Virus record (IMG/VR): IMGVR_UViG_3300007351_000018
Source of the DNA: a virus
Reading direction: 5' to 3' (one strand)
DNA length: 47,425 bases
The position numbers were made by a program, and so were the translations under genes. Each line of letters opens with the position of its first letter. Position 1 is the first letter of the stretch. This document shows, piece after piece, positions 7,392 to 47,425 of this stretch. Below the pieces are notes generated by a model. The model was not told where the DNA came from and ran no database searches. It worked only from the letters and a program-made list of their open reading frames with translations.

Positions 7392-7412
7392 CCCCTTGAC
7401 TTTTATTGAAAA

Positions 7413-7440: not shown

Positions 7441-7463
7441 ATAAATGAAGGGAGAGTATTATT

Positions 7464-19683: not shown

Positions 19684-20130
19684 TCACCCCTCATATAAAC
19701 CTTTTAGAGCCATTACGATTAATACACTGGTAGAATCAGACGAACCACAAGTGTTATTGACAAACTGAAATCTCGCATCCGCACCGTTAAAGATACCATG
19801 CACATTTTTTATAGTCCTGCCTAACCCAGTTTCAGTTGAACCTGGAACAGTTACGGAAGTCAACAGTTCATAGTCCTGTGTCGAACCCGTGGAAAGACCT
19901 ATTTCCTCCGTGTAAATATTGCAAGTAAACGGCATAGTGGAAGGGTTGTAAAACATAGCCTGATATTCATATTTTGCCGCTTTTTGTGCTGTAGAGTTTG
20001 CATAGTCCACATTCACACCCGTTTTACTGGCGGTGGTGGAATCACTCGACAACCGAATAGACACCCTTGATATTGTGGACTGCTGTACGCCTGATGTCGA
20101 TAAAAAGAATTGCTGTGGCGGTCTATACAT
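19684..20130 (-). CDS. Ser/Thr-rich structural protein (148 aa)
   Basis: Within the structural operon; ...LSTSGVQQSTISRVSIRLSSDSTTASKTG... Confidence 0.4.
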   Translation of the reverse strand: MYRPPQQFFLSTSGVQQSTISRVSIRLSSDSTTASKTGVNVDYANSTAQKAAKYEYQAMFYNPSTMPFTCNIYTEEIGLSTGSTQDYELLTSVTVPGSTETGLGRTIKNVHGIFNGADARFQFVNNTCGSSDSTSVLIVMALKGLYEG

Positions 20131-20189
20131 TGTAAGTCACCTTCTTTCATAAAGATAAAGGGGCGGTTGTACTTCCCGCCCCAATTTTA

Positions 20190-20792
20190 TTAACCAGACG
20201 ATTCGACGGCTGCTTCCGCGTGTATACCACCCGCAGCATTTTCAAAGCCCGGTATGGTCGAATCAACACTTGTTACCATCCATACTGATGTTGAAATACC
20301 CAGTAGGTTCAATGTCTGTGGCTGTGTCCCTAGTGTGGAGAATGATATATAGCGGTGGCTTGAACCACCAGTCGAATCCATTACTCCGCAATTAGTTGTT
20401 AAGTCAACCCACAGCGTATTAGCAGAGGCACCAGTAGAGCCCCAACGTATCACTTTTGGTACACCTGGAATAGGCGCACCCACTACAATAGTCCTTGCTG
20501 ACGTTGAGAAGTCACCGCCCGTTGTGTTAGGCACGCAATAGGTCAAACCATACGGCGTTACCGTTGAAGGGCTTGCACCAGCAGACGTTACCGCAACGGT
20601 TTCGACATACGCAATAGGTACACCTTGGTTATAGGTTAGTCCCGTAGAACTCGCCACCTGTACCGCAGTCGAACCGGAACGCGCATAGATACCATTGCCG
20701 TACAACGCACCCGTGGAGTCTAGTACAGTCAAGTCCGTACTGCCATTAGTCGTACCATTGATGTAAATGCCCTCACGTTGTTCTATTTTCAT
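20190..20792 (-). CDS. Ser/Thr/Gly-rich structural protein (about 200 aa) immediately after the major capsid gene
   Basis: ATG at 20792 after GAGGTG; ...NGTTNGSTDLTVLDSTGALYGNG...VTSAGASPSTVTPYG... Confidence 0.45.
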   Translation of the reverse strand: MKIEQREGIYINGTTNGSTDLTVLDSTGALYGNGIYARSGSTAVQVASSTGLTYNQGVPIAYVETVAVTSAGASPSTVTPYGLTYCVPNTTGGDFSTSARTIVVGAPIPGVPKVIRWGSTGASANTLWVDLTTNCGVMDSTGGSSHRYISFSTLGTQPQTLNLLGISTSVWMVTSVDSTIPGFENAAGGIHAEAAVESSG

Positions 20793-20860
20793 TTTTTTCA
20801 CCTCGATTCAAAGCATAATAAAAGGGCGATTATTTAACCGCCCTTATTTAGTTAGCTACA

Positions 20861-21763
20861 TCAAGCGCCCTGATTCCCCGCAAATCCGACGTTAGGAATC
20901 ATACAGGAATTGTGCATAGCGATTGCAGCCAATTTGAGATTCTTCGTGTCGAAGTCAATCTCATCAGTGAACTGCGTTTTCATCCACCATACGAATATCG
21001 CATGGACGAATGAGTTATCCCACATGAACCAAGCGTTGGTATCATTCAAACGATGTGAATAATGCCAATTTATCCTTGCTGATGGCAGGACGTTCTTTGT
21101 GTTTACAGTCAGCCCGGCTTTCTTGTCGGATTCGTAAACTTCCTCAATGTCGAACTGATTCAAGTAATGTGTCAAGCCATCAGTCGCTTTTGAGGGCATG
21201 GGCTTACCCTGATGATTTTTGAACTGTGCAAACATCTGTATCATGGATTTGTGGTTGTCAGGATCTGTCAAGGATGAAGCTGTTGCCAATGTGTCATTGG
21301 TTGTTCCAGGAGCATCTTTACAAGGAACACTGTTCGAGCATTTGGGTACGCCTGTTGCGAGGTTAGTCGTAAAGGCATTGTCAAAATGCGCTATCAATGT
21401 TTCCTCTTCCAAGTCCCTCATGGTTCTTGCAAGTTCCTTCGCCCTTGCGGGGTCAAGACACTTATTAAGGTCGAACTTCATAGCCTCCTGCGTGATAGAG
21501 AATCCGTTACCTCTTGTTACAGACTTAACGGAGGTCTGGTACGCCTCCCTGACCGAACCGTAAGTCAGAGGCATACCCTCTGTCTTTGTGTACGCGGCAG
21601 AAAGGTTACCCATCGTGTCAAATGTTTCCGTTTCTTTTACCCCTTCATACTCCGTGCTTATCATAGGGTATTCAAGGGGGTATGCTTCATAGTTATTGTA
21701 GAAGTAGTCTTTCTGTTGGTCGGCTACACTTCTAGCAATATCTGAGGTTACTGTATATGCCAT
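20861..21763 (-). CDS. Major capsid protein candidate (300 aa)
   Basis: Called from size and position after the scaffold-like gene; strong RBS (GGAAGGAGTGAAAG); followed by a GC hairpin (aaagggcg...cgccctt). No motif-level proof. Confidence 0.55.
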   Translation of the reverse strand: MAYTVTSDIARSVADQQKDYFYNNYEAYPLEYPMISTEYEGVKETETFDTMGNLSAAYTKTEGMPLTYGSVREAYQTSVKSVTRGNGFSITQEAMKFDLNKCLDPARAKELARTMRDLEEETLIAHFDNAFTTNLATGVPKCSNSVPCKDAPGTTNDTLATASSLTDPDNHKSMIQMFAQFKNHQGKPMPSKATDGLTHYLNQFDIEEVYESDKKAGLTVNTKNVLPSARINWHYSHRLNDTNAWFMWDNSFVHAIFVWWMKTQFTDEIDFDTKNLKLAAIAMHNSCMIPNVGFAGNQGA

Positions 21764-21782
21764 AATCTTTCACTCCTTCCGA

Positions 21783-22352
21783 TTAGGTAGTCACAAGCCC
21801 TCTGAACAAGTTCGGGGCGAATGTACCACGCACTGTTTTATTGACCGTTGAGAAATCAGTCAAAATGAACGCACCAAGGGTAGAACCAGAAACACTTGCC
21901 GTTGAAGCAGTAATCCAATCCTGTACCCAAGTCGACCCTGCGGTTGAGGCATAAGTAGAACCAGATGAACATTCCTGTGCAACAAACTTGAACACCAGCC
22001 CAAGGTTTGTCGTTGTCACCCAGTCACTCGCCATCGCTCCTGCGCCATCAGACGATGCTGTGGTATAATTACCCTCACATACGTCATATGGAGTAAGAGG
22101 CTGTACATAAACTATCGCTGTTGAATCTGCTGTTGCATTTGCCGGCATAACAGCTACAATACCGGCAAGTCCACCACTCGTTGAACCCAAAGGCTCGGTT
22201 GAACCCGTGGAAGTGCCGATTGTCACCAATCTTGCACGACCAGACGATTCAAATACGAGTTTACCAACGTCAGTGGTGTATATGCTCGCTGTGCTGGACG
22301 CAATCATTTTCCTTACGGGATTTTCCTGCGCCCCATTAACGATTTTCCACAT
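21783..22352 (-). CDS. Ser/Thr-rich head decoration-like protein (about 189 aa)
   Basis: Lies between the scaffold and capsid genes; ATG at 22352 after AGGAG; ...TIGTSTGSTEPLGSTSGG..., ...SSGSTYASTAGST..., ...TASTASVSGST... Confidence 0.4.
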   Translation of the reverse strand: MWKIVNGAQENPVRKMIASSTASIYTTDVGKLVFESSGRARLVTIGTSTGSTEPLGSTSGGLAGIVAVMPANATADSTAIVYVQPLTPYDVCEGNYTTASSDGAGAMASDWVTTTNLGLVFKFVAQECSSGSTYASTAGSTWVQDWITASTASVSGSTLGAFILTDFSTVNKTVRGTFAPNLFRGLVTT

Positions 22353-22364
22353 AATTATCAACTC

Positions 22365-25786: not shown

Positions 25787-25833
25787 AAAAAAAGACCGTC
25801 CTATTGTTTGTGAAATCAAACAATAAAACGGTC
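25787..25833 (-). terminator. Strong rho-independent terminator between the sugar operon and the portal gene
   Basis: Minus strand: GACCGTTTTATTGTTTG-atttca-CAAACAATAGGACGGTC followed by TTTTTTT. The stem is 17 positions with two mismatches. Confidence 0.75.
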
Positions 25834-25856
25834 TCTAATGGACTCTCTACTCTGCT

Positions 25857-26027
25857 CTACTCTGCTTTATAAATTAATACATTTAAGTAATGACATCTAT
25901 TACAAGTCTTCTCTATTACCACTACTTTCAAATCTTCGGGTATGTTGGTGGATGGTGCGTGTATCACTAACCCTCGCTTTAGTTCGTCAAACTTCTTCCC
26001 GCAATTTCCACATCGGATATCGGTCAT
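25857..26027 (-). CDS. Hypothetical 56-aa zinc-ribbon protein (last gene of the sugar operon)
   Basis: MTDIRCGNCGKKFDELKRG...KTCNRCHYLNV...; ATGA overlap with the upstream ORF. Confidence 0.4.
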   Translation of the reverse strand: MTDIRCGNCGKKFDELKRGLVIHAPSTNIPEDLKVVVIEKTCNRCHYLNVLIYKAE

Positions 26028-26209
26028 CTTTTAACCCTTGATTCAGGCGGGGTCATGGACTTGTTCAACATACCAGTCTGCGGGTCACGGTAAAGGGATT
26101 TCTTATCATCCTTCTTCTCTACGATTACCACCTTACCCAACCTCTCCAGTAACAAGAAAACACAAAAGCATAATGCTATTGTAGAAAAAATTAAACTAAC
26201 TATAACCAT
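26024..26209 (-). CDS. Small single-pass membrane protein
   Basis: MVIVSLIFSTIALCFCVFLLL... then a charged tail; overlaps the neuA-like stop. Confidence 0.45.
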   Translation of the reverse strand: MVIVSLIFSTIALCFCVFLLLERLGKVVIVEKKDDKKSLYRDPQTGMLNKSMTPPESRVKR

Positions 26210-26831
26210 GTAGCCCTCCGTTTTTCAATATACTTCCCGCTATGAAAACGTCATCCATGTCATCAACATCAACACTCCTGTATGATGGCATCACATATTC
26301 GATTACGTTATCGCTCCATAGCTTACCTTTGTTGAGTAAATCCCTGCGTGTTATGAATATCGCACCATTCCTCTGAAAGTGTGCTTTGTCTGTTGCTTTG
26401 TTGAATCTTTTGTCCTTAGTTTTCAATCTCAGTAAATATCCCGAATACAAACTATCGGACTCTATCAACTGGTTATCATTAAAACATTCAATAGCCCCGT
26501 CAATGTCGTTCACTGTCCGTAACGGGCTTGTGGGCTGTAATAACATTATCGCATCCACACACTTGTCAAACATGAGTTCATATTGCTCTATCGCATACGG
26601 CAACCATGTGAATATATCTTCCTTCTTACCCTTACTCATTTTGGAAGGGCGTATGATACCGTATGTTTTATATTCAGTGTACTTATCAGTGAAAACGAAC
26701 CAGTCATCAAGCATACTTTTTTCTGCTGCTTGTATTGTGTACTCTATCATCGGCTTACCACATAAAGGATATATGTTCTTGTCCTTTATGCCCTTTGAAC
26801 CTCCACGGGCTGGTATAATACCAAGTATCAT
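26196..26831 (-). CDS. neuA: N-acylneuraminate (nonulosonate) cytidylyltransferase, CMP-NulO synthetase
   Basis: ILGIIPARGGSKGIKDKNI, LLQPTSPLRT, QRNGAIFIT, VDVDDMDDVFIA: all hallmark CTP_transf_3 motifs. Confidence 0.85.
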   Translation of the reverse strand: MILGIIPARGGSKGIKDKNIYPLCGKPMIEYTIQAAEKSMLDDWFVFTDKYTEYKTYGIIRPSKMSKGKKEDIFTWLPYAIEQYELMFDKCVDAIMLLQPTSPLRTVNDIDGAIECFNDNQLIESDSLYSGYLLRLKTKDKRFNKATDKAHFQRNGAIFITRRDLLNKGKLWSDNVIEYVMPSYRSVDVDDMDDVFIAGSILKNGGLHGYS

Positions 26832-27934
26832 AATTCCTCCAATATCTTGATAATTTTCTCTCCTGCCGTACCATCTCCAAACGTATAATCTCTCGCGTGT
26901 TTCTTGCCTATCATCTTTTCCGCATAATCAAATATCTCGCCTGATGAATAACCCACCCTTACAGTATTAAAACCGTGTTCTCGTTTATCCTGTCGTGTGC
27001 CTATGCATACATAAGGAACTCCAAGATATGAACCTTCTCTTATACCTGAACTGGAATTACCTATGAACAACGAACAGTTATTTATCAGCTTATAAAACTT
27101 CAACGGCGGTAAATTCTTCACGAACCTTATCTTGTCACACAACCCCAGTTCACGCATCTTCCTGATATAACCTGAAATCTCGTCATTCCCCGCGTCTATG
27201 TTAGGCCAAAACCATACTGTCTGGATATCCAACTTATTCACCGCAGTCAATATCTCATTGGCTTGGAACTCACCTTCTCCGTATTCTCTTGTGTTGGGAT
27301 GAAACATCACAACAATATACGGCTTTGTCAAGTCGATTTCAGCACCCACACCACCATACAAATGGGAATCGTTTATATCTTCGGGCTTGTGTGTCAGGTC
27401 TACCCCTGCAATCAAATCTATGGACGGGCATCCGACATTATATACCTTGTCTTTACCCATGGCCCTTATCCTGTCGGCACTCTTTTCTGTTGCGGGGAAA
27501 TGTATGTCGGCAAGTTGTGTGATAGCGTTTCTTACCTTATCATCAATACTTCCCGTTTCCTCCCCGCCCTGCGTATGTACAAGGGGAATATTCATGTAAG
27601 AGGCTGCTGTCGCCACCGCCATCTGTTCATACCTATCGGCGTGTGCAATCACTATATCAGGCTTTAATCGTTCCAAAGCATTACATATCTCTATCAGGAA
27701 AAATCCCGTTGACAGCCCCATTATGTGGGGAGTGTCACCCTCTACCTTGTAATGGATTTTCTCATTGGGGATAAACCCCTCATTCTCCATTACCTCAACA
27801 GCCTCACCATACTTGTCCAATAACATTGAACCAGCAGCGATTATCTGCAAGGTATGTGACTCTTTTATCTTTTGAGCAACCGCTTTCATCCTGCCCCACG
27901 GCGCACGATTCGTAACCGCTAAAAGTATCTTCAC
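26828..27934 (-). CDS. neuC: UDP-N-acetylglucosamine 2-epimerase (hydrolysing), NeuC-type
   Basis: MKILLAVTNRAPWGRMK..., HADRYEQMAVATAA, VHTQGGEETGSIDDKVRNAITQLADIHF: parallels the NeuC/SiaA GDR-E...GGE-SG-DD-IR motifs. Confidence 0.8.
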   Translation of the reverse strand: MKILLAVTNRAPWGRMKAVAQKIKESHTLQIIAAGSMLLDKYGEAVEVMENEGFIPNEKIHYKVEGDTPHIMGLSTGFFLIEICNALERLKPDIVIAHADRYEQMAVATAASYMNIPLVHTQGGEETGSIDDKVRNAITQLADIHFPATEKSADRIRAMGKDKVYNVGCPSIDLIAGVDLTHKPEDINDSHLYGGVGAEIDLTKPYIVVMFHPNTREYGEGEFQANEILTAVNKLDIQTVWFWPNIDAGNDEISGYIRKMRELGLCDKIRFVKNLPPLKFYKLINNCSLFIGNSSSGIREGSYLGVPYVCIGTRQDKREHGFNTVRVGYSSGEIFDYAEKMIGKKHARDYTFGDGTAGEKIIKILEEL

Positions 27935-29040
27935 TGTGGCCCTCTTAAAATATGATTCAGTACATCACTATAAGCACCCGAAGCACCCTGCATTTGTGCT
28001 GTGTGTATGTCGCAATTCTTAATAGTTTCATCCAACTGTGTGAATGTAGGCACGAGTTTATTCAATTCCATATGCTTATGTTTTATCAACCGTTCCACTT
28101 CTTCACGCGATTGTGAGTTTAGAGCATCTGTCGCACCAGTGATATATCCTTCGGTGTTTCGCAGTTGTCTGTAAATCTCATCACGCTTAAACTCTGCCGT
28201 TGCCCTCTGTGTATGTAATGCACCACCCTTTGGCTTTAGATCGGTTATACGCTGTTTGACAAGCACGCAAGCCTTATTGTCGGATTCAAAACCGTACAGT
28301 AAGCCTCCAGGATTCGATAATAGGTCACATTCGGGAGGCTGGTAATACTTTATACCCATGCACTGTAAGAAGAACACCCACGATTCTACGGATGGCCTTT
28401 GGAAACTATACTCCGAGTCCGTTGCCATGTTAACGCCATAGATATGTACCTCTTTGAATCCTTCATACCATGCCAAAGCTATCATCCATGAAATCTGATT
28501 AGTAAAATACCTATAACCAAACGGTACTACTTCTTTCAGTTTGTTCAGAATATCGTCTTTGGGGTATGGTACAGTTCCTGGCATATCGTCATAGTGATCC
28601 CATGTATAAATGGGTATCTTAGCACTCTTTAACCATTTCTGATGTTCCGGCCTCTGTTTACTAGGTGAGTTCCGTATATCGTGTATCTCGAACCATCTAT
28701 CGGCTCTACCATTAGGTATTGATTGCAGATACTTGTAAAGTTCGTTTATGCCCCAAATCTCAAACGATGGGTCATTATATGGTGCTTTGTTCCATGAGTT
28801 AGCAAATCCCACTATTGCCACCTTATCGGTTTTGCGTGGCAGTTTAATATACTTTTTCGTGGGTAGTATTTCTTCCCATTCTTTCGGTAGCTTTTGTGCA
28901 AATCCCACCGCACGTTTCATCTGTTCTGTGTTCAAGGGTGATTCCCTTAATTGCTGTGGCGGTATTGCGGGGTCTGATATCTTAACCTTACCTTCCTGTA
29001 CTTCCTTAACAACAGCTTCAACATCTTTCTTTGTTGACAT
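27931..29040 (-). CDS. Orphan 369-aa protein; candidate nonulosonate (sialyl-type) transferase
   Basis: Sits between neuB and neuC with overlapping stops and starts. KVAIVGFANSWNK...FEIWGINELY and FTNQISWMIALAWYEGFKEVHIYGVNMA recall the nucleotide-sugar fold pattern of CstII-type (GT42) and Maf/DUF115 transferases, from memory rather than alignment. Coiled-coil C-terminus. Confidence 0.35.
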   Translation of the reverse strand: MSTKKDVEAVVKEVQEGKVKISDPAIPPQQLRESPLNTEQMKRAVGFAQKLPKEWEEILPTKKYIKLPRKTDKVAIVGFANSWNKAPYNDPSFEIWGINELYKYLQSIPNGRADRWFEIHDIRNSPSKQRPEHQKWLKSAKIPIYTWDHYDDMPGTVPYPKDDILNKLKEVVPFGYRYFTNQISWMIALAWYEGFKEVHIYGVNMATDSEYSFQRPSVESWVFFLQCMGIKYYQPPECDLLSNPGGLLYGFESDNKACVLVKQRITDLKPKGGALHTQRATAEFKRDEIYRQLRNTEGYITGATDALNSQSREEVERLIKHKHMELNKLVPTFTQLDETIKNCDIHTAQMQGASGAYSDVLNHILRGPQ

Positions 29041-29383
29041 TACCTACCTCCATCTTTTTTTGTATGATTTGCTCATAAGAGTGTAAATCACAATGTATAT
29101 GTGCGTTTTCTATAAAGAGTTGAACGATTTTATTAGAACCTTTTTGAAGTTTTGCCTTAACAATAAAATTAACAATCTCAAATTCTTTCTCATCAATTTT
29201 ATTAGCCTTATCAAACCCCAATATCAACATATCACGGTCTTTAACATAAGCACTTTCCACATAAATATAGGAATCAGGGTCAAATTCTTCCAACCTCAAT
29301 TCATGTTCTTTCCCTAAATGTTCCTTTAATTCTTTAATATCTTTAAATTCCTTCTTACACCTATGACAAATCACCCCATCCAC
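29018..29383 (-). CDS. Hypothetical protein with an N-terminal C2H2-like zinc finger
   Basis: CHRCKKEFKDIKELKEHLGKEH. Confidence 0.4.
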   Translation of the reverse strand: MDGVICHRCKKEFKDIKELKEHLGKEHELRLEEFDPDSYIYVESAYVKDRDMLILGFDKANKIDEKEFEIVNFIVKAKLQKGSNKIVQLFIENAHIHCDLHSYEQIIQKKMEVGNVNKERC

Positions 29384-30102
29384 CTCATCTTATAAATTTG
29401 ACATTTATCTAAATAATTTCGATAATCAACAAGTTCCTTAAATTCGTCTGGTGTGCTACTGAATAAGTGGTCTTTGCCAGGAAGATACTTCCCAAGCGTG
29501 TAATGTCTTTCCAACCACTCCACACCTTGTTTTATGGCCTTTTTCGCACACTCAATGTCAGGTGTGTGGTCTGAAAACCCGCCAAGTAGCGTCATCTTAT
29601 CAAAGTCAACTTCGCTTTTGGGCGCAGGATAACGTGATATACAGTATAAAAGTGATACATTAGGGTATTGGCTTAACTTATATATGTTTTTATCGTCCGT
29701 CATACCTGTACTGATTATCACATGGTTAAAATATTGGATGCAAAAATCCACCAACCTATCATTATCAGCGTCAGGAGAGGCAATTTTAACTGTATCGCAC
29801 CCCAACACGCCAATAACCAGTGCCAATTCCTTTGAAAATATCGTAAAAAGAGGTTTAACCCCACTTTCCTTGCACTTTTCCACGATAAAGGAGTAATCAT
29901 CATTCTGTAATTCAACTTTTTTGTAGTAATCATAAGATTTTTCAAAGTCAGGCCAGTTTTTATTAAGATTATCAGCTTTAAATGCTTGGAATTTTATGTA
30001 ATCAATCCCTATTTTACCAGCTTGGATTATCATTTCTTCCATGAATTGCCTATTGCCTAGATGGTTGCAACAGGCATCGGCTATGATTTTTGTCATATTC
30101 AC
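29371..30102 (-). CDS. neuB: N-acetylneuraminate (nonulosonate) synthase, NeuB catalytic TIM-barrel domain only
   Basis: IIADACCNHLGN...IDYIKFQAF, VKIASPDADN, IISTGMT, YCISRYPAP, GFSDHTPD, WLERHYTL: NeuB family landmarks. At 243 aa there is no C-terminal SAF/antifreeze-like domain. Confidence 0.75.
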   Translation of the reverse strand: MNMTKIIADACCNHLGNRQFMEEMIIQAGKIGIDYIKFQAFKADNLNKNWPDFEKSYDYYKKVELQNDDYSFIVEKCKESGVKPLFTIFSKELALVIGVLGCDTVKIASPDADNDRLVDFCIQYFNHVIISTGMTDDKNIYKLSQYPNVSLLYCISRYPAPKSEVDFDKMTLLGGFSDHTPDIECAKKAIKQGVEWLERHYTLGKYLPGKDHLFSSTPDEFKELVDYRNYLDKCQIYKMRWMG

Positions 30103-30103
30103 C

Positions 30104-31015
30104 TCACAAATTTATTAATGGGGATTTCAGTCCATCAAATCGGTATTTTATGTCGTAGTTTGCCATTGCTGTATCGTCCCACGCGCTTAAAAATCTCTTG
30201 TATTTCTCAACATCGGGCTTTATGAACTGTGGTGTCTGCGGTTCACACTTTTTAAAGAAACAATATAGCTTCTCACCCATGCTCTCAAAGTAAGTATAGG
30301 TTGCGTGTTCCCTGAATCCGCACTTTAACATTAGTTGGACAAGTGTTAATTGTGAAAAAGCGAACAAATGAGCGCAGGACATGAAAGCATCTACCGCCAA
30401 CCAATGCACACAAGTTAATACATTGGGTACGGATATCAACAAAAGTCCGTCATCTGTCAATATATTTCTTGCTTTTTGTATCACGCTTATGGGATCATAC
30501 AAATGTTCAAGAGTATTTTGCAGACTTATCAGGTCATACTTGGATGCAGGATTAAATTCCTCTATTGTCGTATTGGCTACATCTAAATTATTCTCTCTTG
30601 CTATCTCGTAGGTTTTCTTATTAGGTTCTATACCAAAAGCGTCATACTCTTTGCAACCCTCCAGAAATGTCCCTACCGCACATCCGATATCAAGCACTTT
30701 CGCACCACGTTTCACGCCAACGTCTTTCATACATTCCAAAGCGTGCCTTGCGTGCAGATGTATGCTTGCATTAAAACTCGTAGCCTTGCCGTATATGTTC
30801 CTGTAATCGTTCTCGTAAAAGTCTATGAGTTCCTGTCTATCCATTCTATTAACAACATATATGAGACCACAACCACGGCAAATAACATTAGTGCCGTTAA
30901 GAATGTTACCAAGGTTATCACGGATAACCACACTCCTTAATATCCCCTTCTTCTCTCGTTCTATCTTATCCCATATGACTTCATAATCAGTGGACCCGCA
31001 GAGAATACAACTCAT
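30104..31015 (-). CDS. Class I SAM-dependent methyltransferase with an N-terminal zinc ribbon
   Basis: CILCGS...CRGCG; SAM motif I KVLDIGCAVGTFLE; ...LISLQNTLEHLYDP...GLLLISVPN. Confidence 0.75.
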   Translation of the reverse strand: MSCILCGSTDYEVIWDKIEREKKGILRSVVIRDNLGNILNGTNVICRGCGLIYVVNRMDRQELIDFYENDYRNIYGKATSFNASIHLHARHALECMKDVGVKRGAKVLDIGCAVGTFLEGCKEYDAFGIEPNKKTYEIARENNLDVANTTIEEFNPASKYDLISLQNTLEHLYDPISVIQKARNILTDDGLLLISVPNVLTCVHWLAVDAFMSCAHLFAFSQLTLVQLMLKCGFREHATYTYFESMGEKLYCFFKKCEPQTPQFIKPDVEKYKRFLSAWDDTAMANYDIKYRFDGLKSPLINL

Positions 31016-31356
31016 ACGGTTTCCCTCTCCACTTTGATATTTTTTGTATTATAATAATTTATAACTCGAAATACGTCCCCGCTTTTCATCGTAACAATAA
31101 TATCATTACCTGAAACTTCCGCATTTTCAACCTTGTCATTTTCTTTATACCTTATTGCGTTTACCATTTCGGGGTGTGGTTTCAACGCCAAGACGTTCCC
31201 ATTAAAATATATTTCATTGCCTCTTATACCGATGTTCTGGTCAGTGTACCTTATTGGATTTTCTAGATCGTATACTTTCCTTTCTAATTTTTCTACTCTT
31301 CCTCTTAATTCAAAAAACTCCTTTGTTAATACCGCTAATTCATATTTGCTAGACAT
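31012..31356 (-). CDS. Hypothetical protein (114 aa)
   Basis: ORF with an ATGA overlap to the methyltransferase gene. Confidence 0.4.
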   Translation of the reverse strand: MSSKYELAVLTKEFFELRGRVEKLERKVYDLENPIRYTDQNIGIRGNEIYFNGNVLALKPHPEMVNAIRYKENDKVENAEVSGNDIIVTMKSGDVFRVINYYNTKNIKVERETV

Positions 31357-32189
31357 AATCCCTCCAAATACTTTCTCATTTGTTCTGCAATATAAATATC
31401 AGTCAACCTTCTAGCGTCCTTCGAGTTCCCCCCGACATGGGGTGTCTGGATAGCACCAGGTATTTCCACATCATTAAGGAAATCGTCTGCATAGTAGATG
31501 TACTCGTTTTCAATGAATGGTATCAACTCGTCAACCTTTATAACGCCCTGCCGTGAAGTGTTCACCAACAATGCGCCAGGTTTCATCAGTTCAAAATCTG
31601 CCTTACCAAACATCCCTTCATTACCCTTCAAGGGAATGTTTATCGTTATAACGTCTGAATTGCCTAAGATGTATTCGTAGTAGTCATGGTAAAACATACC
31701 GTAACTTTTCTCTTGTTTCCTGTCTATGTCGTAGATTGTCATACCGAAAGCATCCGCATACTTGCCTATCATCTTACCCAGTCTGCCATAACCTATAATG
31801 CCTATCATCTTGTCTTTTAACTGTAACCGTGCTTTTTTCGCCAACTGCAATATCAGCGACCATGTATGCTCTGCGGTAGAGGTTATCTTCTTGCCCTCTG
31901 TTGCTTTCCACTCATCGTCAAGGTGAATGACCTTCGGTGCTTTGATGTGTTCAACTGAAGTACAGGGGCAAAAAACTGGTAGATTAGTTTTAATCGGTGT
32001 CAATTGTGTATAGACTGCGGAATAAACATTTTCATTAAGTCCGTAGAATTGAAGATACTCAAACTCTGCAATATCCTCAATAACTTTCTGTGCATCCTGA
32101 TGAATCTTGTCCAACATCAGAATCTTCGTTTTCCTCACACCCTTCCAATAAACTTTCAGCAGGATAAACCGATATAAAAACCCTTGCAA
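31335..32189 (-). CDS. D-isomer-specific 2-hydroxyacid dehydrogenase family, NAD-binding
   Basis: IGIIGYGRLGKMIGKYADAFGMTIYDID (GxGxxG then acidic residue), LLVNTSRQGVI, TPHVGG. The probable start is the ATG at 32117 (MLDKIHQD...). Confidence 0.7.
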   Translation of the reverse strand: MQGFLYRFILLKVYWKGVRKTKILMLDKIHQDAQKVIEDIAEFEYLQFYGLNENVYSAVYTQLTPIKTNLPVFCPCTSVEHIKAPKVIHLDDEWKATEGKKITSTAEHTWSLILQLAKKARLQLKDKMIGIIGYGRLGKMIGKYADAFGMTIYDIDRKQEKSYGMFYHDYYEYILGNSDVITINIPLKGNEGMFGKADFELMKPGALLVNTSRQGVIKVDELIPFIENEYIYYADDFLNDVEIPGAIQTPHVGGNSKDARRLTDIYIAEQMRKYLEGLCLANMN

Positions 32190-32550
32190 ATCTATTAAGG
32201 TTTCGTTCCATCTCTAGTTCATAATTTGCCCAGTGGTCTTTGGATAAGTGTTCCTCTATCCAATCATCAAGCGTTATGTGTATAATGTGCATCATTTCAT
32301 GTATCAGGACATTGTACCACCCAAAGGATTCAAAGTCTGATGTCTTAGTATCTATTAAGTCTGTATTGAGGTATATGACGGAGTGCATATTCTGCTTATC
32401 CATGACGTTACAACCTTCTGACTTTTTACCGTATATACCCTGCATCTCATGGTCATTGATTAATCGTAGGCTTATATCCCAATCCTGAATCCGCATGATA
32501 CATTGAAGTATCTCTATCATTTCTTCAAACTTTTCTTTTGTCGGCAGCAT
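32077..32550 (-). CDS. HExxH zinc-metallopeptidase-like protein
   Basis: ...WYNVLIHEMMHIIH...; acidic C-terminal tail. Confidence 0.4.
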   Translation of the reverse strand: MLPTKEKFEEMIEILQCIMRIQDWDISLRLINDHEMQGIYGKKSEGCNVMDKQNMHSVIYLNTDLIDTKTSDFESFGWYNVLIHEMMHIIHITLDDWIEEHLSKDHWANYELEMERNLNRFARVFISVYPAESLLEGCEENEDSDVGQDSSGCTESY

Positions 32551-32552
32551 AG

Positions 32553-32693
32553 TTACCTCTTTTCCTTTTTGGCGTATTTACCGCTTCTCGATGGATTATC
32601 GTCATTGAAGTCATCTATGTCTATGCGTCTGTCGTGAAGGTCAACCTTCAAATCCCATATACCCAGCCATAAAGCTATAACACCTATGACCAT
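32553..32693 (-). CDS. Hypothetical 46-aa membrane protein
   Basis: MVIGVIALWLGIWDL... then a charged tail; lies between terL and the HExxH gene; below the ORF-track cutoff. Confidence 0.3.
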   Translation of the reverse strand: MVIGVIALWLGIWDLKVDLHDRRIDIDDFNDDNPSRSGKYAKKEKR

Positions 32694-32719
32694 GGCAATC
32701 AGTTCAAACCAACTCTGTA

Positions 32720-34249
32720 CTATTGGCACTTCCCTATCACCCTTACTCCGCTTTTCTCCAAGCGGTCGATTTCGTGTTCCTTATAACCTTTCAGTTTCAA
32801 CTCCGTATACAACCACTCACCCTTTAATGGTGCTGATGGTTCCGCACTCCTGCGTGGACGATGTACACAAAAACACCGTAAGCTATCAGGTAAGTGTGTT
32901 ATGTTATGAGGCTCTTTTGCAACATCATCAGGATCCTTGTCGGACTTCTGGATATTGTTCATACACTTCCACAACTTAGGGCAACTGCCCTTGTCAAAAG
33001 TCAGGTAAGCCGTTTTGTACTTATCGCCGGTCTGCTCATCCCTTAACTCAACAGGCAACAACCATTCTCGGACATTCATCCAACCCTTTACCCTGTCATT
33101 GGAGGTCTTGGTCAGCCTAATGCCATGCTCGATGAAAATATCTGCTGCACTCTTGCCCGTATCGTTCCTGCGATTCCATAAATCCGGCGGGGCATAATAA
33201 TGATGTATGTTTTCTTTCGTCAGCTTCGCAATAATCTTCGCCGCTTCCGATATGATCAAATTGGATTGTTCAAACTCTCTATAGACCCTTGCGAACCCCT
33301 GTTCATCAACGTAAATCCACAACACTGCCGTGGAATCTAAGCCGTAGTCTATGGTGACATACTTGCGATACCATTCGGGTATGGAACCAATACTGTCCTT
33401 CAAATGTACTTCTTCCTTCATCTGGAACGCGAACCCGCACAACGAACTAAACCGTCCGTACTGTCGTGCTTCACGTTCCTCTGGTGTCATGGTGGCAACG
33501 AGTTTATTTATCTCTTCCAGCGACAGCCAGGGGTTATCTTCCCATTCTACCAGCCAATACTTCACATCAGAGTCATTGTTCTCATTCAGATAGACCACGT
33601 TGTAAACAAACGTCAAACCTTTAAGCGGGGTCATGGTGAACCATATATCACCCCGTGTGTCCATGATCCTCATTTTACACTCGTCAAAGACTTCCTGTGT
33701 GGGTTCCTCGTCAAACCATATCCAACCCTGTGAGGTTCCCTGAAAACTCTCACGACCCTGCTCTACCGTCTTAAAGCCTATCGTCTGACCGTTCTTTAAA
33801 ATTATCTTATCTATGATGGCGTTTATCGGGTCATCCTTCTTGCCGTGTCTTACTATGATGTTCTTGATCTGTTCCTTCGGCAACCACCTTAAAATTTCTC
33901 GCTGTGCTACATCACGCTGGACTTCGTTAGTCAAACTCACTACCCAGCCGGATGAAGGTTTCAGCTCCCTGTACTTACTCCAGCCCATAGTATGACATAC
34001 GGCCTCTACCGCGCCCGCTACCGTCTTACCTACCCTGTTACCGCCGAATATGGCTTTTAATCTATGGGAATCAGTATGGAACTCAACTTGTTTCTTGTGT
34101 ATGCCCTTCCCCTTAAGCTGGCAGTAATCCTCATTATTGTAAAGAAGAAGCCTATTGTGTTGGGATTCCTTCTCAAATTCCTCTATGGCTTTATTGATTA
34201 ACTCGGCTGTTCTATCTTGCCAATATTTTAACTCTGCTTGTTTATCCAT
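32720..34249 (-). CDS. terL: Terminase large subunit
   Basis: Walker A-like FGGNRVGKTVAG, Walker B GWIWFDEE, C-terminal nuclease-type acidic motifs (VTIDYGLD...); 509 aa. Confidence 0.8.
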   Translation of the reverse strand: MDKQAELKYWQDRTAELINKAIEEFEKESQHNRLLLYNNEDYCQLKGKGIHKKQVEFHTDSHRLKAIFGGNRVGKTVAGAVEAVCHTMGWSKYRELKPSSGWVVSLTNEVQRDVAQREILRWLPKEQIKNIIVRHGKKDDPINAIIDKIILKNGQTIGFKTVEQGRESFQGTSQGWIWFDEEPTQEVFDECKMRIMDTRGDIWFTMTPLKGLTFVYNVVYLNENNDSDVKYWLVEWEDNPWLSLEEINKLVATMTPEEREARQYGRFSSLCGFAFQMKEEVHLKDSIGSIPEWYRKYVTIDYGLDSTAVLWIYVDEQGFARVYREFEQSNLIISEAAKIIAKLTKENIHHYYAPPDLWNRRNDTGKSAADIFIEHGIRLTKTSNDRVKGWMNVREWLLPVELRDEQTGDKYKTAYLTFDKGSCPKLWKCMNNIQKSDKDPDDVAKEPHNITHLPDSLRCFCVHRPRRSAEPSAPLKGEWLYTELKLKGYKEHEIDRLEKSGVRVIGKCQ

Positions 34250-34563
34250 AACGCTCCAAACTGGAAATTATCGTGTGTTTCTGCGGTGGTACAATGGCAT
34301 TTTAGGTTGATATATCAACATTCGGTACTGGAAATTGGGAGGCCCCTTTTGTATAAAAAATGTATGATGGGGATATATCTTGTTTGATACCCCGGCCCTG
34401 GGGGCTCCCCCCCTATGGATAGGCAGGTCTGTGTATCGCTATATTGCTCTACATTACCAATAAGGTATCTATATGGTAATTTGATTATGGTAATATGTTT
34501 TGGTTATAAATATGCACTAAAACAAGGGGAATATTAGCCTATACCATAAACTATCCTTTTTGG
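34250..34563. other. Unusually long terS-terL spacer carrying repeats and a GC block; candidate pac/cos region
   Basis: ACTGGAAATT twice (34260, 34327); palindrome GTTGATATATCAAC (34306-34319); 24-nt tract 34390-34413 with only two non-G/C bases; TGGTAAT twice (34474, 34488) plus the inverted ATTACCA (34453). No ORF longer than 17 codons on the minus strand. Confidence 0.3.
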
Positions 34564-35016
34564 TTATGAGGTCAACTCCTGGACTCTCTGCTGTGCCTCT
34601 CTAAGCTGTGTCAGGACAATAGATAGATTATGACTCTGGTTGATCTCTGTGGGCTCTCCGGATGCTAAGGCTTGCTTGTCGTATATCTGTGCTAGTGATA
34701 AGGTTATATCGGTTAGCCTAGCCTTTTTGAGTGCTTCCGGGTCTTGTAGTAGCTGATCGGCCTTCATATTGGCTGCCCTTATGCCCTTCTCGACGAAGTC
34801 CCAGGCATTAGCAATAAACTCCTTTTTTCTTTTGGCTCGAATCTCTTCGAATAAATCCTTATCCTCTTCCACAATCTGCACCTTTATATCATGCACCGTT
34901 GTAAAGGGTAACTCTGTCTTTTCTGCTATTTGTGCCTCTGTTACATCAGGGTCTACCATCATAATAGCTTTAATCTGTTCTCTTTTCTGTTCTGGTGTCT
35001 TAACTCCTCTTGGCAT
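34564..35016 (-). CDS. terS: Terminase small subunit candidate
   Basis: 150 aa; N-terminal HTH-like segment (VTEAQIAEKTELPFTTVHDIK), helical middle region; lies upstream of terL. Confidence 0.5.
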   Translation of the reverse strand: MPRGVKTPEQKREQIKAIMMVDPDVTEAQIAEKTELPFTTVHDIKVQIVEEDKDLFEEIRAKRKKEFIANAWDFVEKGIRAANMKADQLLQDPEALKKARLTDITLSLAQIYDKQALASGEPTEINQSHNLSIVLTQLREAQQRVQELTS

Positions 35017-36144: not shown

Positions 36145-36690
36145 ATGATAATAGGCTATGCTAGAGTATCCACAGATGAACAATGTCTTGATCGCCAGAT
36201 TGACGCGCTCACCAAATACGGCATAGATACGCTATACACCGAAAAAATGACAGGTACTCGCGCCAATAGACCGGAACTCGACAAGATTAAATTGCAAGCC
36301 CGTAAAGGTGACACGGTTGTCATCGAAAGTCTTAGCCGTCTAGGTCGTAGCACAAAAGACTTACTAACACTAATCAGCACATTTGACGAAAAAGGCATAA
36401 AACTTGTATCGCTCAAGGAGAGTATCAGCACGGACACAGCCGCAGGAAAACTGATAACAAGTATATTGTCTGCCCTGTGTGAGTTCGAGCGTGATACCAT
36501 CGTTCAGCGTACAAAGGAGGGTATGGCCGCCGCCAAATCAAGGGGGAGAAACGGAGGGCGGCCACGGAAAAACAGTAAAAGCATCGAAAAGGCAACACAG
36601 CTATATAATGCTGGTAAATCTATATCTGAAATAAAATCATTTACAGGTGTTAGTGCTACTACACTTTACCGCTACTTAAAGGAGGGTTGA
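36145..36690 (+). CDS. Small serine recombinase (resolvase/invertase family)
   Basis: MIIGYARVSTDEQ (catalytic Ser), VIESLSRLGRSTKDLL, C-terminal HTH ...AGKSISEIKSFTGVSATTLYRYL. Confidence 0.85.
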   Translation: MIIGYARVSTDEQCLDRQIDALTKYGIDTLYTEKMTGTRANRPELDKIKLQARKGDTVVIESLSRLGRSTKDLLTLISTFDEKGIKLVSLKESISTDTAAGKLITSILSALCEFERDTIVQRTKEGMAAAKSRGRNGGRPRKNSKSIEKATQLYNAGKSISEIKSFTGVSATTLYRYLKEG

Positions 36691-37131: not shown

Positions 37132-37593
37132 TCATTTCGTATCATTTCGTATCATATTTTCCAGTGTTTGTTCCCTTATACGTTTGCATTGAATAATACT
37201 GTAATGTAAAATATCACTAACCTTTTTCCATCTGTATCGCCGGAAATAAAATAGCTTAATTACAAACTTCTCTCGTTCGCTTAAAAGCCGTAACATTTTC
37301 CTCGTAGTCCTGCATTGATCCTCCTTGTCCTCTATGATCCTAGTCAGATATTTGATATGTGTATCATACTTATTTTCAAGGCGTAATAATTCTTCCGCTG
37401 CTCTTGGTGTCGGATCACTCTTTTCTCCTGTTCCTGGTGTACTGCTTATTGTCATGCCTGGTAACATCTTAATATTTAGTAATGCTTCTTCCTTGCTTTT
37501 GTATGTTTCCCGCAATTCCTCCTTATCGTCTCGTAAACTTTGCATCAGGTCAGGATAGTCGTATAACATATTTTCAATTTCCTGCTTTGTCAT
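37132..37593 (-). CDS. ArpU/RinA-like late-gene transcriptional regulator (sigma-70 region-4-like HTH)
   Basis: ...LSEREKFVIKLFYFRRYRWKKVSDILHYSIIQCKRIREQTLENM...; last gene before the packaging module. Confidence 0.5.
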   Translation of the reverse strand: MTKQEIENMLYDYPDLMQSLRDDKEELRETYKSKEEALLNIKMLPGMTISSTPGTGEKSDPTPRAAEELLRLENKYDTHIKYLTRIIEDKEDQCRTTRKMLRLLSEREKFVIKLFYFRRYRWKKVSDILHYSIIQCKRIREQTLENMIRNDTK

Positions 37594-40680: not shown

Positions 40681-41438
40681 ACCTTGCCCCCTTCCAACAT
40701 ATTGAAAAACAGATTGCCGGATTCAGGTTTATCCTGTTTCACCTTATCCACTACCCATGACAATATCGCTCTGTAATCAGACTTGTATTTATAACCCTTA
40801 GCACCCTTAGCGTTATCCAGTATATCTATCATTTTTTTTGTATTGACCTCACCATACTTATCAATAAGTTTTTGATATTCATCTTCGGTCATGGTTACAA
40901 ATTCGGCATAGGGTATTTTGGGATTCGCCGTTTGTTCTTCTTCTTGTTCTTCTTCTTGTTCTTCTTCTTGTTCTTCTTCTTGTTCTTCTTCTTGTTCTGG
41001 TTCTTCTTCTGGTTCTTCTTTTTCCCCCAAGTCTATGGATAGTCTATCTATACTGTATCCATACTTGTCGCACAATTTATAAAACAAGTCTACAAACGCC
41101 TTATTCTTCACGCTTTGCAGTTCTTTAAGTATGCAACTTTTTACCTTTGGGCTTTTGAGTGAATTATGTTTTAACCAATTAAGCAATATTACCTCATTGG
41201 TCTTGTCATCATAGAGTATTTTTTTATATTTAATAAAGCTTGTTAACAGTTGGGATAGTCTATCTATACTGTATCCTGTTTCTATCATGGCAAGTTTTTT
41301 ATTAAATTCATATATGCCACATTGTGAGGTTTTGCTATTGGTCATAAGATAGAGATAAAAATACCTTTCCTCTGGCTTTAGATCAATCACAAAACCGTCT
41401 TGCCAAAAACTGATATGTACTAATCTGTATATCGCCAT
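40677..41438 (-). CDS. Phage replisome organiser (DnaD-like) with an internal poly-Glu repeat
   Basis: MAIYRLVHISFWQDGFVIDLKPEERYFYLYLMTNSKTSQCGIYE is the typical replisome-organiser N-terminus. The ATG at 41438 after GAGGTAGGG is preferred over 41486. Confidence 0.6.
   Translation of the reverse strand: MAIYRLVHISFWQDGFVIDLKPEERYFYLYLMTNSKTSQCGIYEFNKKLAMIETGYSIDRLSQLLTSFIKYKKILYDDKTNEVILLNWLKHNSLKSPKVKSCILKELQSVKNKAFVDLFYKLCDKYGYSIDRLSIDLGEKEEPEEEPEQEEEQEEEQEEEQEEEQEEEQTANPKIPYAEFVTMTEDEYQKLIDKYGEVNTKKMIDILDNAKGAKGYKYKSDYRAILSWVVDKVKQDKPESGNLFFNMLEGGKV
40930..41030. repeat. 12-nt tandem repeat (ttgttcttcttc and variants) encoding (EEEQ)n / EEPE
   Basis: About 5 exact copies plus 2 variants, read directly from the sequence. 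Confidence 0.85.
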
Positions 41439-47181: not shown

Positions 47182-47425
47182 ACCGTTACCTCAACAAAAT
47201 CACCATTTTGCAATTTATACCATACGTCCTCTTTAATGATTACTCCATCAATTTGAATGGATTTGACACATATAGGCACGCAATATCCATCCTTGATGAT
47301 GTATTCTGCAAGCGTTATCCAACAGCCAATTTTGCTTTTTACTATGCCGTCAATACCGATATTTGCACCAACAGTATTTTTACCCTCTAATGCAAGCTGT
47401 GACCTGTCGCCAGAGGATGCAAGCT
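47178..47425 (-). CDS. C-terminal part of the nonapeptide-repeat protein that starts at 484
   Basis: ...SQLALEGKNTVGANIGIDGIVKSKIGCWITLAEYIIKDGYCVPICVKSIQIDGVIIKEDVWYKLQNGDFVEVTV, stop at 47180-47178; the frame is open to the right edge. Confidence 0.7.
   Translation of the reverse strand, partial: LASSGDRSQLALEGKNTVGANIGIDGIVKSKIGCWITLAEYIIKDGYCVPICVKSIQIDGVIIKEDVWYKLQNGDFVEVTV
47390..47425. repeat. Terminal 36-nt exact duplicate of positions 1-36 (circular-assembly overlap inside the 27-bp tandem repeat)
   Basis: atgcaagctgtgacctgtcgccagaggatgcaagct is present at both ends. Confidence 0.95.

Follow-up and report, generated by a model that had tools for sequence, protein, structure and literature searches.

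A 47,425-nucleotide stretch of viral DNA (IMG/VR virus record IMGVR_UViG_3300007351_000018; hereafter, the window) carries twelve tightly packed open reading frames (ORFs) on its minus strand (25857-32729), situated between the gene for the large terminase subunit (terL) and the portal gene. This gene cassette is very likely a late-expressed module that synthesizes a nonulosonic acid (NulO) activated with cytidine monophosphate (CMP) and transfers the sugar to an acceptor in the cytoplasm. All twelve ORFs lie on the same strand as terL and the portal gene, as originally predicted from the nucleotide sequence, and the order of transcription is a possible small terminase gene (34564-35016), terL, the twelve ORFs (32729 to 25857), a spacer of 89 nucleotides (nt), and the portal gene.

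In the known three-step route, NeuC, NeuB, and NeuA convert uridine diphosphate-N-acetylglucosamine (UDP-GlcNAc) into N-acetylmannosamine (ManNAc), then into N-acetylneuraminic acid (Neu5Ac), and finally into CMP-Neu5Ac. For the phage, we propose that a NeuC-type enzyme would hydrolyse and epimerise UDP-GlcNAc to ManNAc, that a NeuB-type synthase without an SAF domain would join ManNAc with phosphoenolpyruvate (PEP), and that a NeuA-type enzyme would activate the product with cytidine triphosphate (CTP). A soluble transferase resembling the GT42 sialyltransferases would then pass the sugar from CMP onto its acceptor. A conserved 2-hydroxyacid dehydrogenase and a methyltransferase found in the window probably tailor the sugar, so that the expected product is a nonulosonic acid of the Neu5Ac type, perhaps carrying modifications. 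The predicted acceptors are virion head proteins, most plausibly the Ser/Thr-rich proteins that flank the major capsid protein, which would result in sialylated, negatively charged particles. We consider this entire chain of events, including the virion acceptor, to be as apt to prove right as wrong.

Enzymes encoded by the cassette

The three sugar-pathway enzymes were originally recognized by their motifs, and these assignments were confirmed by profile searches that place them in the Epimerase_2, NeuB, and CTP_transf_3 families (Table 1). The NeuC-type protein scores 330.2 bits with the NCBIfam model TIGR03568 for hydrolysing NeuC/NnaA enzymes (cutoff 235.9), compared to only 62.4 bits with the model for the non-hydrolysing enzyme WecB (cutoff 210). 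Its best solved relative is the epimerase domain of human GNE (4zht, 192.8 bits), and the LegG-type epimerase of the legionaminic acid (Leg) pathway (5xvs) scores 148.3 bits.

The NeuB-type synthase is formed by a TIM barrel alone. It carries no C-terminal SAF (antifreeze-like) domain, and the next ORF downstream is not SAF-like. In Neisseria meningitidis NeuB, this domain supplies Arg314 for substrate binding, and SAF-less synthases exist in environmental bacteria, as reported in a survey of 13,941 synthases that is without any mention of viruses (PMC8208679). The compact architecture is shared by all NeuB homologues among the at least 120 matches listed, which are 221-278 amino acids (aa) long and reside on contigs of no more than 51 kb, whereas the copies within the phage lineage measure 234-267 aa. 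The GFSDHT and ERHYT motifs align with those of solved synthases, and the positions that correspond to the metal, PEP, and catalytic residues of those enzymes (K37, K106, S109, S131, S177, D178, H179, E198, H200, and D211) do not vary among 25 clade members. The score with the equivalog model for N-acetylneuraminate synthase (TIGR03569) is 139.8 bits, which falls under the cutoff of 399.65. Matches to solved structures (Bacillus subtilis SpsE, 71.7 bits; the Leptospira enzyme, 62.9 bits; PseI, 61.3 bits; N. meningitidis NeuB, 57.3 bits) are too close in score to decide among a Neu, Leg, or pseudaminic acid (Pse) assignment, and this classification was dropped. For the cytidylyltransferase, the top matches in the PDB are all CMP-NeuAc synthetases (6ifd, E=3e-16, followed by 1qwj and 1eyr). 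Its best NCBIfam match is PseF (66.5 bits, cutoff 205.7), and no equivalog cutoff is reached.

The gene between NeuB and NeuC that had been noted as an orphan, transferase-like ORF encodes a protein with a sialyltransferase fold, as judged by profile, profile-profile, and fold searches. When its 369-aa sequence is scanned singly, there is no match in Pfam, NCBIfam, or PHROG, and hundreds of unannotated relatives are present on phage-sized metagenomic contigs. When a profile built from 41 of these sequences is searched against the PDB, Campylobacter jejuni CstII and CstI rank first (E=1.2e-4; 1ro8, 2drj, 1ro7), and the aligned columns keep the G-x-x-P-S and N..Y motifs of the donor site along with a G-Y-K-E-I..G-[VI]-D motif. 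Profile-profile alignment by hhalign covers 141 columns with a probability of 93.4% and E=2.4e-7, using a CstII sequence that agrees with PDB entries in two segments. The AlphaFold2 model has a mean predicted local distance difference test score (pLDDT) of 88, and the sole significant match by Foldseek in the PDB is Cst-I (2p56, E=8e-4, probability 1.0). The C-terminal ~110 residues (256-365) form a long helical hairpin in this model, and a Kyte-Doolittle scan reveals no hydrophobic or membrane segment. On these sequence and model comparisons, we classify the protein as a distant, soluble GT42-like transferase rather than as a proven GT42 member. Its location in head modules and its invariant His residues led us to consider a prohead protease or scaffold, which was rejected given the alpha/beta Rossmann fold, the matches to sialyltransferases in the PDB and BFVD, and the presence of separate S78 proteases and DUF4355 scaffolds at loci of this family.

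In a set of 1.84 billion representatives (clustered at 50% identity), 4,681 clusters belong to the transferase family at E<=1e-3, and the family has no Pfam model. Members were found at 271 IMG/VR loci, compared to 13 of 185,579 species-representative genomes and one of 50,697 deposited phage records. The 13 metagenome-assembled genomes (MAGs) span many phyla and none has the full cassette. In phages unrelated to the window, the gene resides inside head modules (with SPP1- or HK97-type portals, MuF proteins, DUF4355 scaffolds, and HK97 or P22 coats), where it is found between the MuF or portal genes and the scaffold or capsid genes. Among 130 ORFs flanking the transferase, the commonest Pfam family is CTP_transf_3, and a clade hidden Markov model places a cytidylyltransferase directly next to the transferase at five loci (L053, L058, L076, L082, and L094). 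This recurring two-gene unit ties the family to CMP-activated sugars.

Two of the MAGs, L094 (OZ242374.1) and L096 (OZ246889.1), are complete Acidobacteriota chromosomes that provide the only chromosomal contexts found, presumably as prophages; in L094 the cytidylyltransferase gene is immediately downstream of the GT42-like gene. The only deposited phage with a family member is Microcystis phage Mvi-Yong1342-1 (L190, PP496355.1), whose gene (6914-7717) is directly upstream of terS, terL, portal, scaffold, and capsid genes and bears the probably mistaken annotation of a type 11 methyltransferase.

The dehydrogenase of the cassette is, by sequence, a bona fide D-2-hydroxyacid dehydrogenase. Its clade profile matches 157 solved enzymes of this family at E<=1e-10, with phosphoglycerate dehydrogenase, D-lactate dehydrogenase, and glyoxylate reductase reaching values down to 1e-38. 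R189 is invariant and a TPH motif is present in the consensus. The methyltransferase, which depends on S-adenosylmethionine (SAM), also weakly matches a pseudaminic-acid-associated methylase model (TIGR03587, E=0.004), and its homologues occur in a subset of related cassettes (L018, L022, L045, L049, and others). The original prediction listed both of these proteins and an HExxH protein, and motifs or family matches agree with all three. The HExxH, 114-aa, and zinc-finger ORFs have no homologue in 12 related cassettes and are specific to the window.

Conservation and transcription of the cassette

Related loci were fetched by using terL, the transferase, NeuB, and the portal as anchors, such that the portal-anchored sample is independent of the cassette genes. 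The shared gene order is terL, 2-hydroxyacid dehydrogenase, methyltransferase (not always present), NeuB, GT42-like transferase, NeuC, cytidylyltransferase, small membrane protein (again not always present), zinc-ribbon protein, and portal. Of the 35 portal-anchored IMG/VR contigs whose portal is 36% or more identical and whose upstream sequence extends for 3 kb or more, 33 carry the cassette, and its 3' end is present in all nine contigs with shorter upstream sequence. Thus, the survey of relatives proposed with the original prediction reveals a conserved insertion rather than a one-off arrangement. The dehydrogenase is encoded in 12 of 12 fully sequenced cassettes, where it is always the first enzyme after terL and is sometimes duplicated.

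Two contigs deviate from this pattern. In L145, which has no cassette, terL, a 70-aa ORF, and a fragmented portal gene are adjacent. In L179 (11792-17850), genes for the cytidylyltransferase, dehydrogenase, methyltransferase, and transferase are located downstream of the portal gene, without NeuB or NeuC. Eight remoter portals (27-33% identity) are not accompanied by the cassette, and two terL relatives (L004 and L005, 62-63% identity) have a different portal-sized gene and no cassette. Because the cassette accompanies relatives of the portal but not these relatives of terL, it goes with the portal/capsid module rather than with terL. In ~20 lineage members, including the window, the transferase gene is located between NeuB and NeuC. 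In contrast, in ~13 relatives it is found directly after the capsid gene and a Ser/Thr-rich neighbor (a homologue of the protein encoded at 20190-20801), while the sugar genes still precede the portal gene.

Other variations were also observed among the relatives. The dehydrogenase and/or transferase genes are duplicated in L025, L035, and L049, and L047 has an added gene of the UDP-glucose/ManNAc-dehydrogenase family (5765-6973). The slot between terL and the portal gene also gathers unrelated genes, which encode a G8-domain protein, an MT-A70 methylase, an amidase, and an HNH homing endonuclease.

Nearly all junctions in the cassette had been described as short overlaps or tiny gaps, and the measured values bear this out. 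From terL onward they are -10, +2, -113/-62/-41 (depending on the start codon chosen), -22, -4, +1, -13, -23, -4, -4, -14, and -4 nt, and thus range from -23 to +2 nt save for the one that involves the ambiguous start of the dehydrogenase, which is probably GTG 32138 or ATG 32117. Strong GGAGG ribosome-binding sites are present. The 26-nt gap originally reported between terL and the cassette holds if the 58-aa ORF begins at its internal ATG at 32693, whereas the longer ORF overlaps terL by 10 nt.

An intrinsic-terminator-like hairpin is located within the 89-nt spacer, 20 nt upstream of the portal ATG. The predicted RNA fold has a free energy of -28.4 kcal/mol (z=-5.3), and none of 200 shuffled sequences is equally stable. 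A hairpin and U-tract of different sequence occupy the same position in L001, L009, L018, and L022, but are absent from remoter relatives. Because this conserved terminator precedes the portal gene, the cassette is best viewed as part of the terminase transcription unit and not as seamlessly fused to the head genes. The proposal that it is fused into the late operon therefore stands with regard to its strand and its translational packing behind terL, but not with regard to its boundary with the portal gene. Promoter-like hexamers occur at chance level (46 found, 46.9 expected in shuffled sequence), which is no evidence either for or against internal promoters. Given that the genes are coupled to terL and end at a terminator, we infer that they should be produced with the packaging enzymes late in infection.

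The zinc-ribbon gene (25857-26027) is directly 5' of the terminator hairpin (25791-25836) that precedes the portal gene. The homologue from L037 passes the cutoff of Pfam Zn_ribbon_Com (24.2 bits, cutoff 22.9), five others match weakly, and the window protein has no match. Com is a translational activator of phage Mu. One possibility from these sequence features is that the 56-aa protein exerts RNA-binding control, by antitermination or at the level of translation, over the head genes. An Rfam scan gave no match. A 314-nt non-coding gap (34250-34563) parts the putative small terminase gene from terL and is the only sizeable intergenic space heading the late operon.

With regard to the flanking genes, the window terL protein shares no more than 31% identity with its counterpart in any deposited phage, and a clade profile of the portal matches a solved portal (8jov, E=7e-4).

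Table 1. Coordinates and supporting matches of the cassette genes, the terminator-like hairpin, and flanking late genes in the window
Feature	Coordinates	Strand	Evidence and remarks
terL, 509 aa	32720..34249	-	Pfam Terminase_6N E=4.6e-12; phrog_2 E=1.9e-30; directly upstream of cassette
58-aa protein, one hydrophobic helix	32553..32729	-	Kyte-Doolittle 19-residue maximum 2.06; homologues in L018, L022
HExxH protein, 157 aa, motif HEMMH	32077..32550	-	Weak SprT-like match, E=0.0026, below cutoff; accessory
D-isomer 2-hydroxyacid dehydrogenase	31335..32189	-	PF02826 (2-Hacid_dh_C) E=2.2e-23, 83 bits
114-aa protein	31012..31356	-	Sub-threshold BapA_N matches only
Class I SAM-dependent methyltransferase, N-terminal Cys-rich segment	30104..31015	-	Methyltransf_23 E=5e-18
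NeuB-type nonulosonic acid synthase, 243 aa	29371..30102	-	PF03102 E=2.9e-41, 141.9 bits (cutoff 22.1)
121-aa protein, N-terminal C2H2-like zinc-finger motif	29018..29383	-	Sub-threshold zf-C2HE and C2H2 matches
Soluble GT42-like (CstI/CstII sialyltransferase-fold) transferase, 369 aa	27931..29040	-	Core at ~residues 70-255
NeuC-type hydrolysing UDP-GlcNAc 2-epimerase	26828..27934	-	Pfam Epimerase_2 (PF02350) E=1.4e-61
NeuA-type CMP-nonulosonate cytidylyltransferase	26196..26831	-	PF02348 (CTP_transf_3) E=6.7e-15, 55.9 bits (cutoff 22.6)
61-aa small membrane protein	26024..26209	-	Kyte-Doolittle 19-residue maximum 2.85; homologues in 4/12 related cassettes
56-aa CxxC...CxxC zinc-ribbon protein, possibly Mu Com-like	25857..26027	-	Last gene before portal; homologues in 9/12 related cassettes
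Intrinsic-terminator-like hairpin	25791-25836	-	20-bp stem, 6-nt loop, U7 tract; between cassette and portal ribosome-binding site
Portal, 611 aa	23932..25767	-	Weak SU10_portal match, E=5.2e-5, sub-threshold; position and size suit a portal
Ser/Thr-rich protein, one side of major capsid protein	21783-22361	-	Candidate acceptor
Major capsid protein	20861-21763	-	Phage_capsid_4 27.2 bits (cutoff 27)
Ser/Thr-rich protein, other side of major capsid protein	20190-20801	-	Candidate acceptor

The sugar, its acceptor, and the alternatives

Gene content and best matches favor a Neu5Ac-type product that is possibly tailored. The original prediction of a plain CMP-Neu5Ac pathway is supported insofar as the genes fit the three-step route, but the SAF-less NeuB, the conserved dehydrogenase, and the frequent methyltransferase suggest that the product may not be plain Neu5Ac. 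The product might instead be an O-methylated or glyceroyl- or lactyl-substituted nonulosonate, or a legionaminic-type sugar derived from host UDP-N,N'-diacetylbacillosamine (UDP-diNAcBac), and we regard this as a substantial possibility that nevertheless falls somewhat below an even chance. In its favor, the dehydrogenase, always in first place, matches the Neu enzymes in its degree of conservation, and in L179 it travels with the methyltransferase, transferase, and cytidylyltransferase in the absence of NeuB and NeuC. Likewise, SpsE is the best solved match of NeuB, albeit with close scores, and PseF is the best NCBIfam match of the cytidylyltransferase. Acyl-tailored NulOs are known, and the di-O-methylglyceroyl-pseudaminic acid of C. 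jejuni provides a precedent for an O-methylated substituent derived from a hydroxyacid (PMC3068675). However, NeuC scores well over its equivalog cutoff and is nearest to GNE, and the Leg and Pse routes are represented by no dehydratase, aminotransferase, or N-acetyltransferase gene, either in the window or in the additional ORFs of those related cassettes that were examined. Genes for diNAcBac are likewise absent from the cassette. Moreover, the cassette encodes no acyltransferase or acyl-activating enzyme to attach a hydroxyacid, which leaves such a tailoring step unexplained. This alternative concerns only the product and is compatible with either a virion or a host acceptor.

From the sequences, we infer both the chemistry of the product and the nature of its acceptor, and attachment to virion proteins has circumstantial genomic support. 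The main argument for this acceptor, itself circumstantial, is that the transferase family resides in the head modules of unrelated phages. In addition, cassette and portal/capsid module vary together, the transferase gene occurs either among the sugar genes or near the capsid gene, and no membrane or export functions are encoded; specifically, Pfam and NCBIfam scans of the cassette found no flippase, polymerase, or lipid-carrier enzyme. The two capsid-flanking proteins have Ser plus Thr contents of 27% and 26%, which are the highest of the genome (mean 12.4%, standard deviation 5.2).

Several observations weigh against this interpretation or parts of it. GT42 enzymes of known function act on lipooligosaccharide (LOS) and not on proteins, and Ser/Thr-rich beta proteins are common on phage particles anyway. 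The structural model of the candidate acceptor at 20190-20801 is all-beta but of low confidence (pLDDT 46.6, from four sequences) and was not used. The alignment of the transferase with CstII ends at CstII residue 165, before the catalytic His188, and catalysis would therefore differ in detail. The invariant residues of the phage family (H120, H133, E118, E210, and Q214) lie elsewhere. NeuB's missing SAF domain, together with scores below the equivalog cutoffs for NeuB and the cytidylyltransferase, makes substrate and product uncertain. The two small membrane proteins of the cassette could point to an envelope-associated process. The terminator hairpin speaks against simple, uninterrupted co-transcription with the portal and head genes, and the L145 contig suggests that the cassette is not essential for assembly.

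The main rival to a virion acceptor is remodelling of the host surface, wherein the sugar would be transferred late in infection to a host glycoconjugate such as lipopolysaccharide (LPS) or LOS, capsule, teichoic acid, S-layer glycan, or flagellin. Receptors could thereby be masked, sparing progeny from loss to debris or already infected cells, or competing phages could be excluded. The known LOS specificity of GT42 enzymes, CstI and CstII included, fits this scenario, as do the two membrane proteins and the well-known cytoplasmic O-glycosylation of flagellin with NulOs. Furthermore, NulO genes on a viral contig were previously interpreted as serving LPS or capsule modification (bioRxiv 10.1101/655167). 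We nonetheless judge this rival to be rather unlikely, given that the cassette's distribution mirrors the portal/capsid lineage, as opposed to the modules for lysis, receptor binding, or terL, that the transferase gene alternates between the cassette and the post-capsid slot and is found inside the head modules of unrelated phages, and that the transferase is soluble and is encoded without flippase, polymerase, or lipid-carrier transferase. It is far less probable that the cassette is a lysogenic-conversion island that is expressed from the prophage to sialylate the surface of the lysogen, with its position between terL and the portal gene being incidental. An integrase-like recombinase, Ant, and a partition-like protein are temperate traits of the phage, its relatives gather unrelated genes in the same slot, and the 3' terminator gives the cassette a defined transcript end. 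However, the first gene overlaps or abuts terL, the coupled junctions leave a dedicated promoter no room between genes, promoter-like sites are as frequent as chance predicts, base composition is not anomalous, and the same strand and order are maintained in dozens of diverged relatives. Least credible of all is that the sugar is added to phage DNA bases as a defense against restriction. Phage glycosyltransferases that hypermodify DNA are known (10.1101/2023.12.21.572611), and the vicinity of packaging genes would be compatible with this role. However, that report names no nonulosonic acids or CMP-sugars, the cassette associates with the capsid module, and neither a DNA polymerase nor an enzyme of the base-hydroxymethylating, TET/JBP-like, or thymidylate-synthase-like kinds was found in the window; without a base-modifying enzyme in the window, this explanation was rejected.

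Some additional features were noted near the capsid gene. Three small proteins of the virion module (19684-22361; 192, 203, and 148 aa) contain 25-27% Ser plus Thr, ~2.5 standard deviations above the genome mean. The 203-aa protein (20190-20801) has only three detectable homologues in a database of 5.8 billion proteins. A second terminator-like hairpin (20822-20845; 10-bp stem with 5 GC pairs) is located directly after the major capsid gene and before the gene for this protein.

Relation to known systems and features of the phage genome

The SiaA/SiaC/SiaB pathway of N. meningitidis and its equivalent in Escherichia coli K1 likewise employ the NeuC, NeuB, and NeuA families encoded in one co-directional cluster. 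The phage system resembles them in that its NeuC passes the curated equivalog cutoff and its NeuB conserves the metal and PEP ligands. It differs from them in being phage-borne between terL and the portal gene, in having a SAF-less NeuB and an obligatory 2-hydroxyacid dehydrogenase, in the scores of NeuB and NeuA below equivalog cutoffs, and in its lack of a polysialyltransferase or export machinery. Similarly, the phage transferase shares with C. jejuni CstI and CstII a homologous Rossmann core for nucleotide-sugar binding and a genomic linkage to CMP-sugar synthesis. However, it is only ~12-25% identical to these enzymes, a helical hairpin replaces their membrane-association segment, and its family is almost exclusively phage-encoded.

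Mycobacteriophage virions are reportedly glycosylated as well. In those phages, glycosyltransferase genes are also said to reside beside capsid genes, with glycan-decorated capsid or tail proteins as the proposed outcome. Whereas mycobacteriophages reportedly use host nucleotide sugars and ordinary glycosyltransferase families, the lineage described here encodes a whole NulO donor pathway and an enzyme with a sialyltransferase fold. A glycosyltransferase gene embedded in the head structural module is found in the window, in the ~13 post-capsid relatives, and in unrelated phages. The flagellin-modifying enzymes Maf and FlmG offer a precedent for a soluble enzyme that moves a CMP-NulO directly onto Ser/Thr residues of a polymerising structural protein, and glycopeptide data indicate that the NulO acceptor regions of flagellin are Ser/Thr-rich (PMC3068675). 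They belong to different families, and the targets here would be phage head proteins. A single-sequence Pfam scan of the window transferase gives no match, Maf/DUF115 included.

The closest viral report is that of LBVG_26, an uncultured viral genome from Lake Biwa that carries neuA, neuB, and neuC, which were interpreted as auxiliary metabolic genes (AMGs) for LPS or capsule (bioRxiv 10.1101/655167). That genome also has capD, pseA, pglC, and pglD, which constitute Leg/Pse-type content, and its report describes no placement between terL and portal, no dedicated transferase, and no lineage-wide conservation. A megablast search with the locus gave no match in 50,697 deposited phage records. A tblastn search of deposited phages with NeuC, NeuB, and the transferase revealed no genuine cultured phage with the cassette enzymes, the exceptions being NeuB-like sequences in a 484-kb uncultured phage and in a marine single-virus genome, and the transferase relative in the Microcystis phage. 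A literature search returned no description of a terL-portal cassette, of phage virion sialylation, or of a GT42-like phage family. Hence, the original statement that no described tailed phage carries such a pathway is upheld for the arrangement, which occurs in no deposited phage, but must be qualified by the one mention of such genes on a viral contig.

Each of three components, namely NulO biosynthesis, GT42 sialyltransferases, and the glycosylation of phage virions, was already known. Neither the literature searched nor the deposited phage genomes describe a complete donor pathway found throughout a lineage at the terL-portal junction, its pairing with a large, unannotated family of sialyltransferase-like proteins from head modules, the clade of SAF-less phage synthases, or the conserved dehydrogenase. 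We tentatively suggest, while leaning slightly toward doubt, that virion self-sialylation is a widespread and unrecognized trait of uncultured tailed phages. In that case, the GT42-like proteins would form a new class of protein O-nonulosonyl transferases acting on capsid or decoration proteins, and the lineage of the window would have gone furthest by encoding the complete donor pathway, which would free particle sialylation from host metabolism.

Should the sugar indeed be placed on particles, this lineage would become the first known among tailed phages to be coated with a self-made, sialic-acid-type sugar, and a large family of phage proteins without annotation would gain a function. Recognition by lectins, Siglecs, antibodies, and sialidases depends on nonulosonic acids, which also contribute negative charge. 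As a result, virions that bear them could be distinct in adherence to mucus or biofilm matrix, immune visibility, colloidal stability, and loss on debris, properties that bear on both phage ecology and phage therapy. If the target is instead the host surface, then a late, lineage-wide, and complete NulO pathway beside the packaging genes would represent an unusual host-takeover function. In addition, chemoenzymatic sialylation might draw on three of the proteins as tools, namely the compact SAF-less synthase, the cytidylyltransferase, and the soluble transferase.

The window is probably the complete genome of a temperate-type tailed phage. Its last 36 nt (47390-47425) exactly repeat its first 36 nt and lie within a 27-nt tandem repeat, which suggests a circular assembly of a complete ~47.4-kb genome that is broken in an iteron-like array. 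Five and a half copies of this repeat (ATGCAAGCTGTGACCTGTCGCCAGAGG) are present at the left end (1-149). The encoded proteins include tyrosine-recombinase-like, ParB-like, FtsK-like, DnaD-like organiser, and G39P-like proteins, Ant, a resolvase, RusA, and exonucleases, along with a protein resembling reductases of 3'-phosphoadenosine 5'-phosphosulfate (PAPS), a phrog_36 regulator, an endolysin with Amidase_3 and Glucosaminidase domains, and podovirus-like internal virion proteins. A search of the window for tRNA genes found none. The endolysin is nearest to those of Bacillus, Paenibacillus, and Faecalibacterium phages, and these relatives, the GGAGG ribosome-binding sites, and the G39P and DnaD-like proteins point indirectly to a Firmicutes-type host.

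Genes for a 214-aa short tyrosine recombinase, a ParB-like partition protein, and an FtsK/SpoIIIE-like ATPase are grouped at 2604-6372, which may reflect an episomal (phage-plasmid-like) or an unusual integration lifestyle. A serine recombinase/resolvase gene (Resolvase plus HTH_7; 36145-36690, plus strand) separates the gene for the phrog_36 regulator (37132-37593) from the beginning of the late operon, and the PAPS-reductase-domain protein (phrog_424; 42207-43049) is encoded in the replication module. In-frame tandem repeats of 6/12/24 nt (40932-41024) occur inside the gene for the DnaD-like replisome organiser, and others of 12/36 nt (46534-46609) are present inside a 213-aa ORF near the right end.

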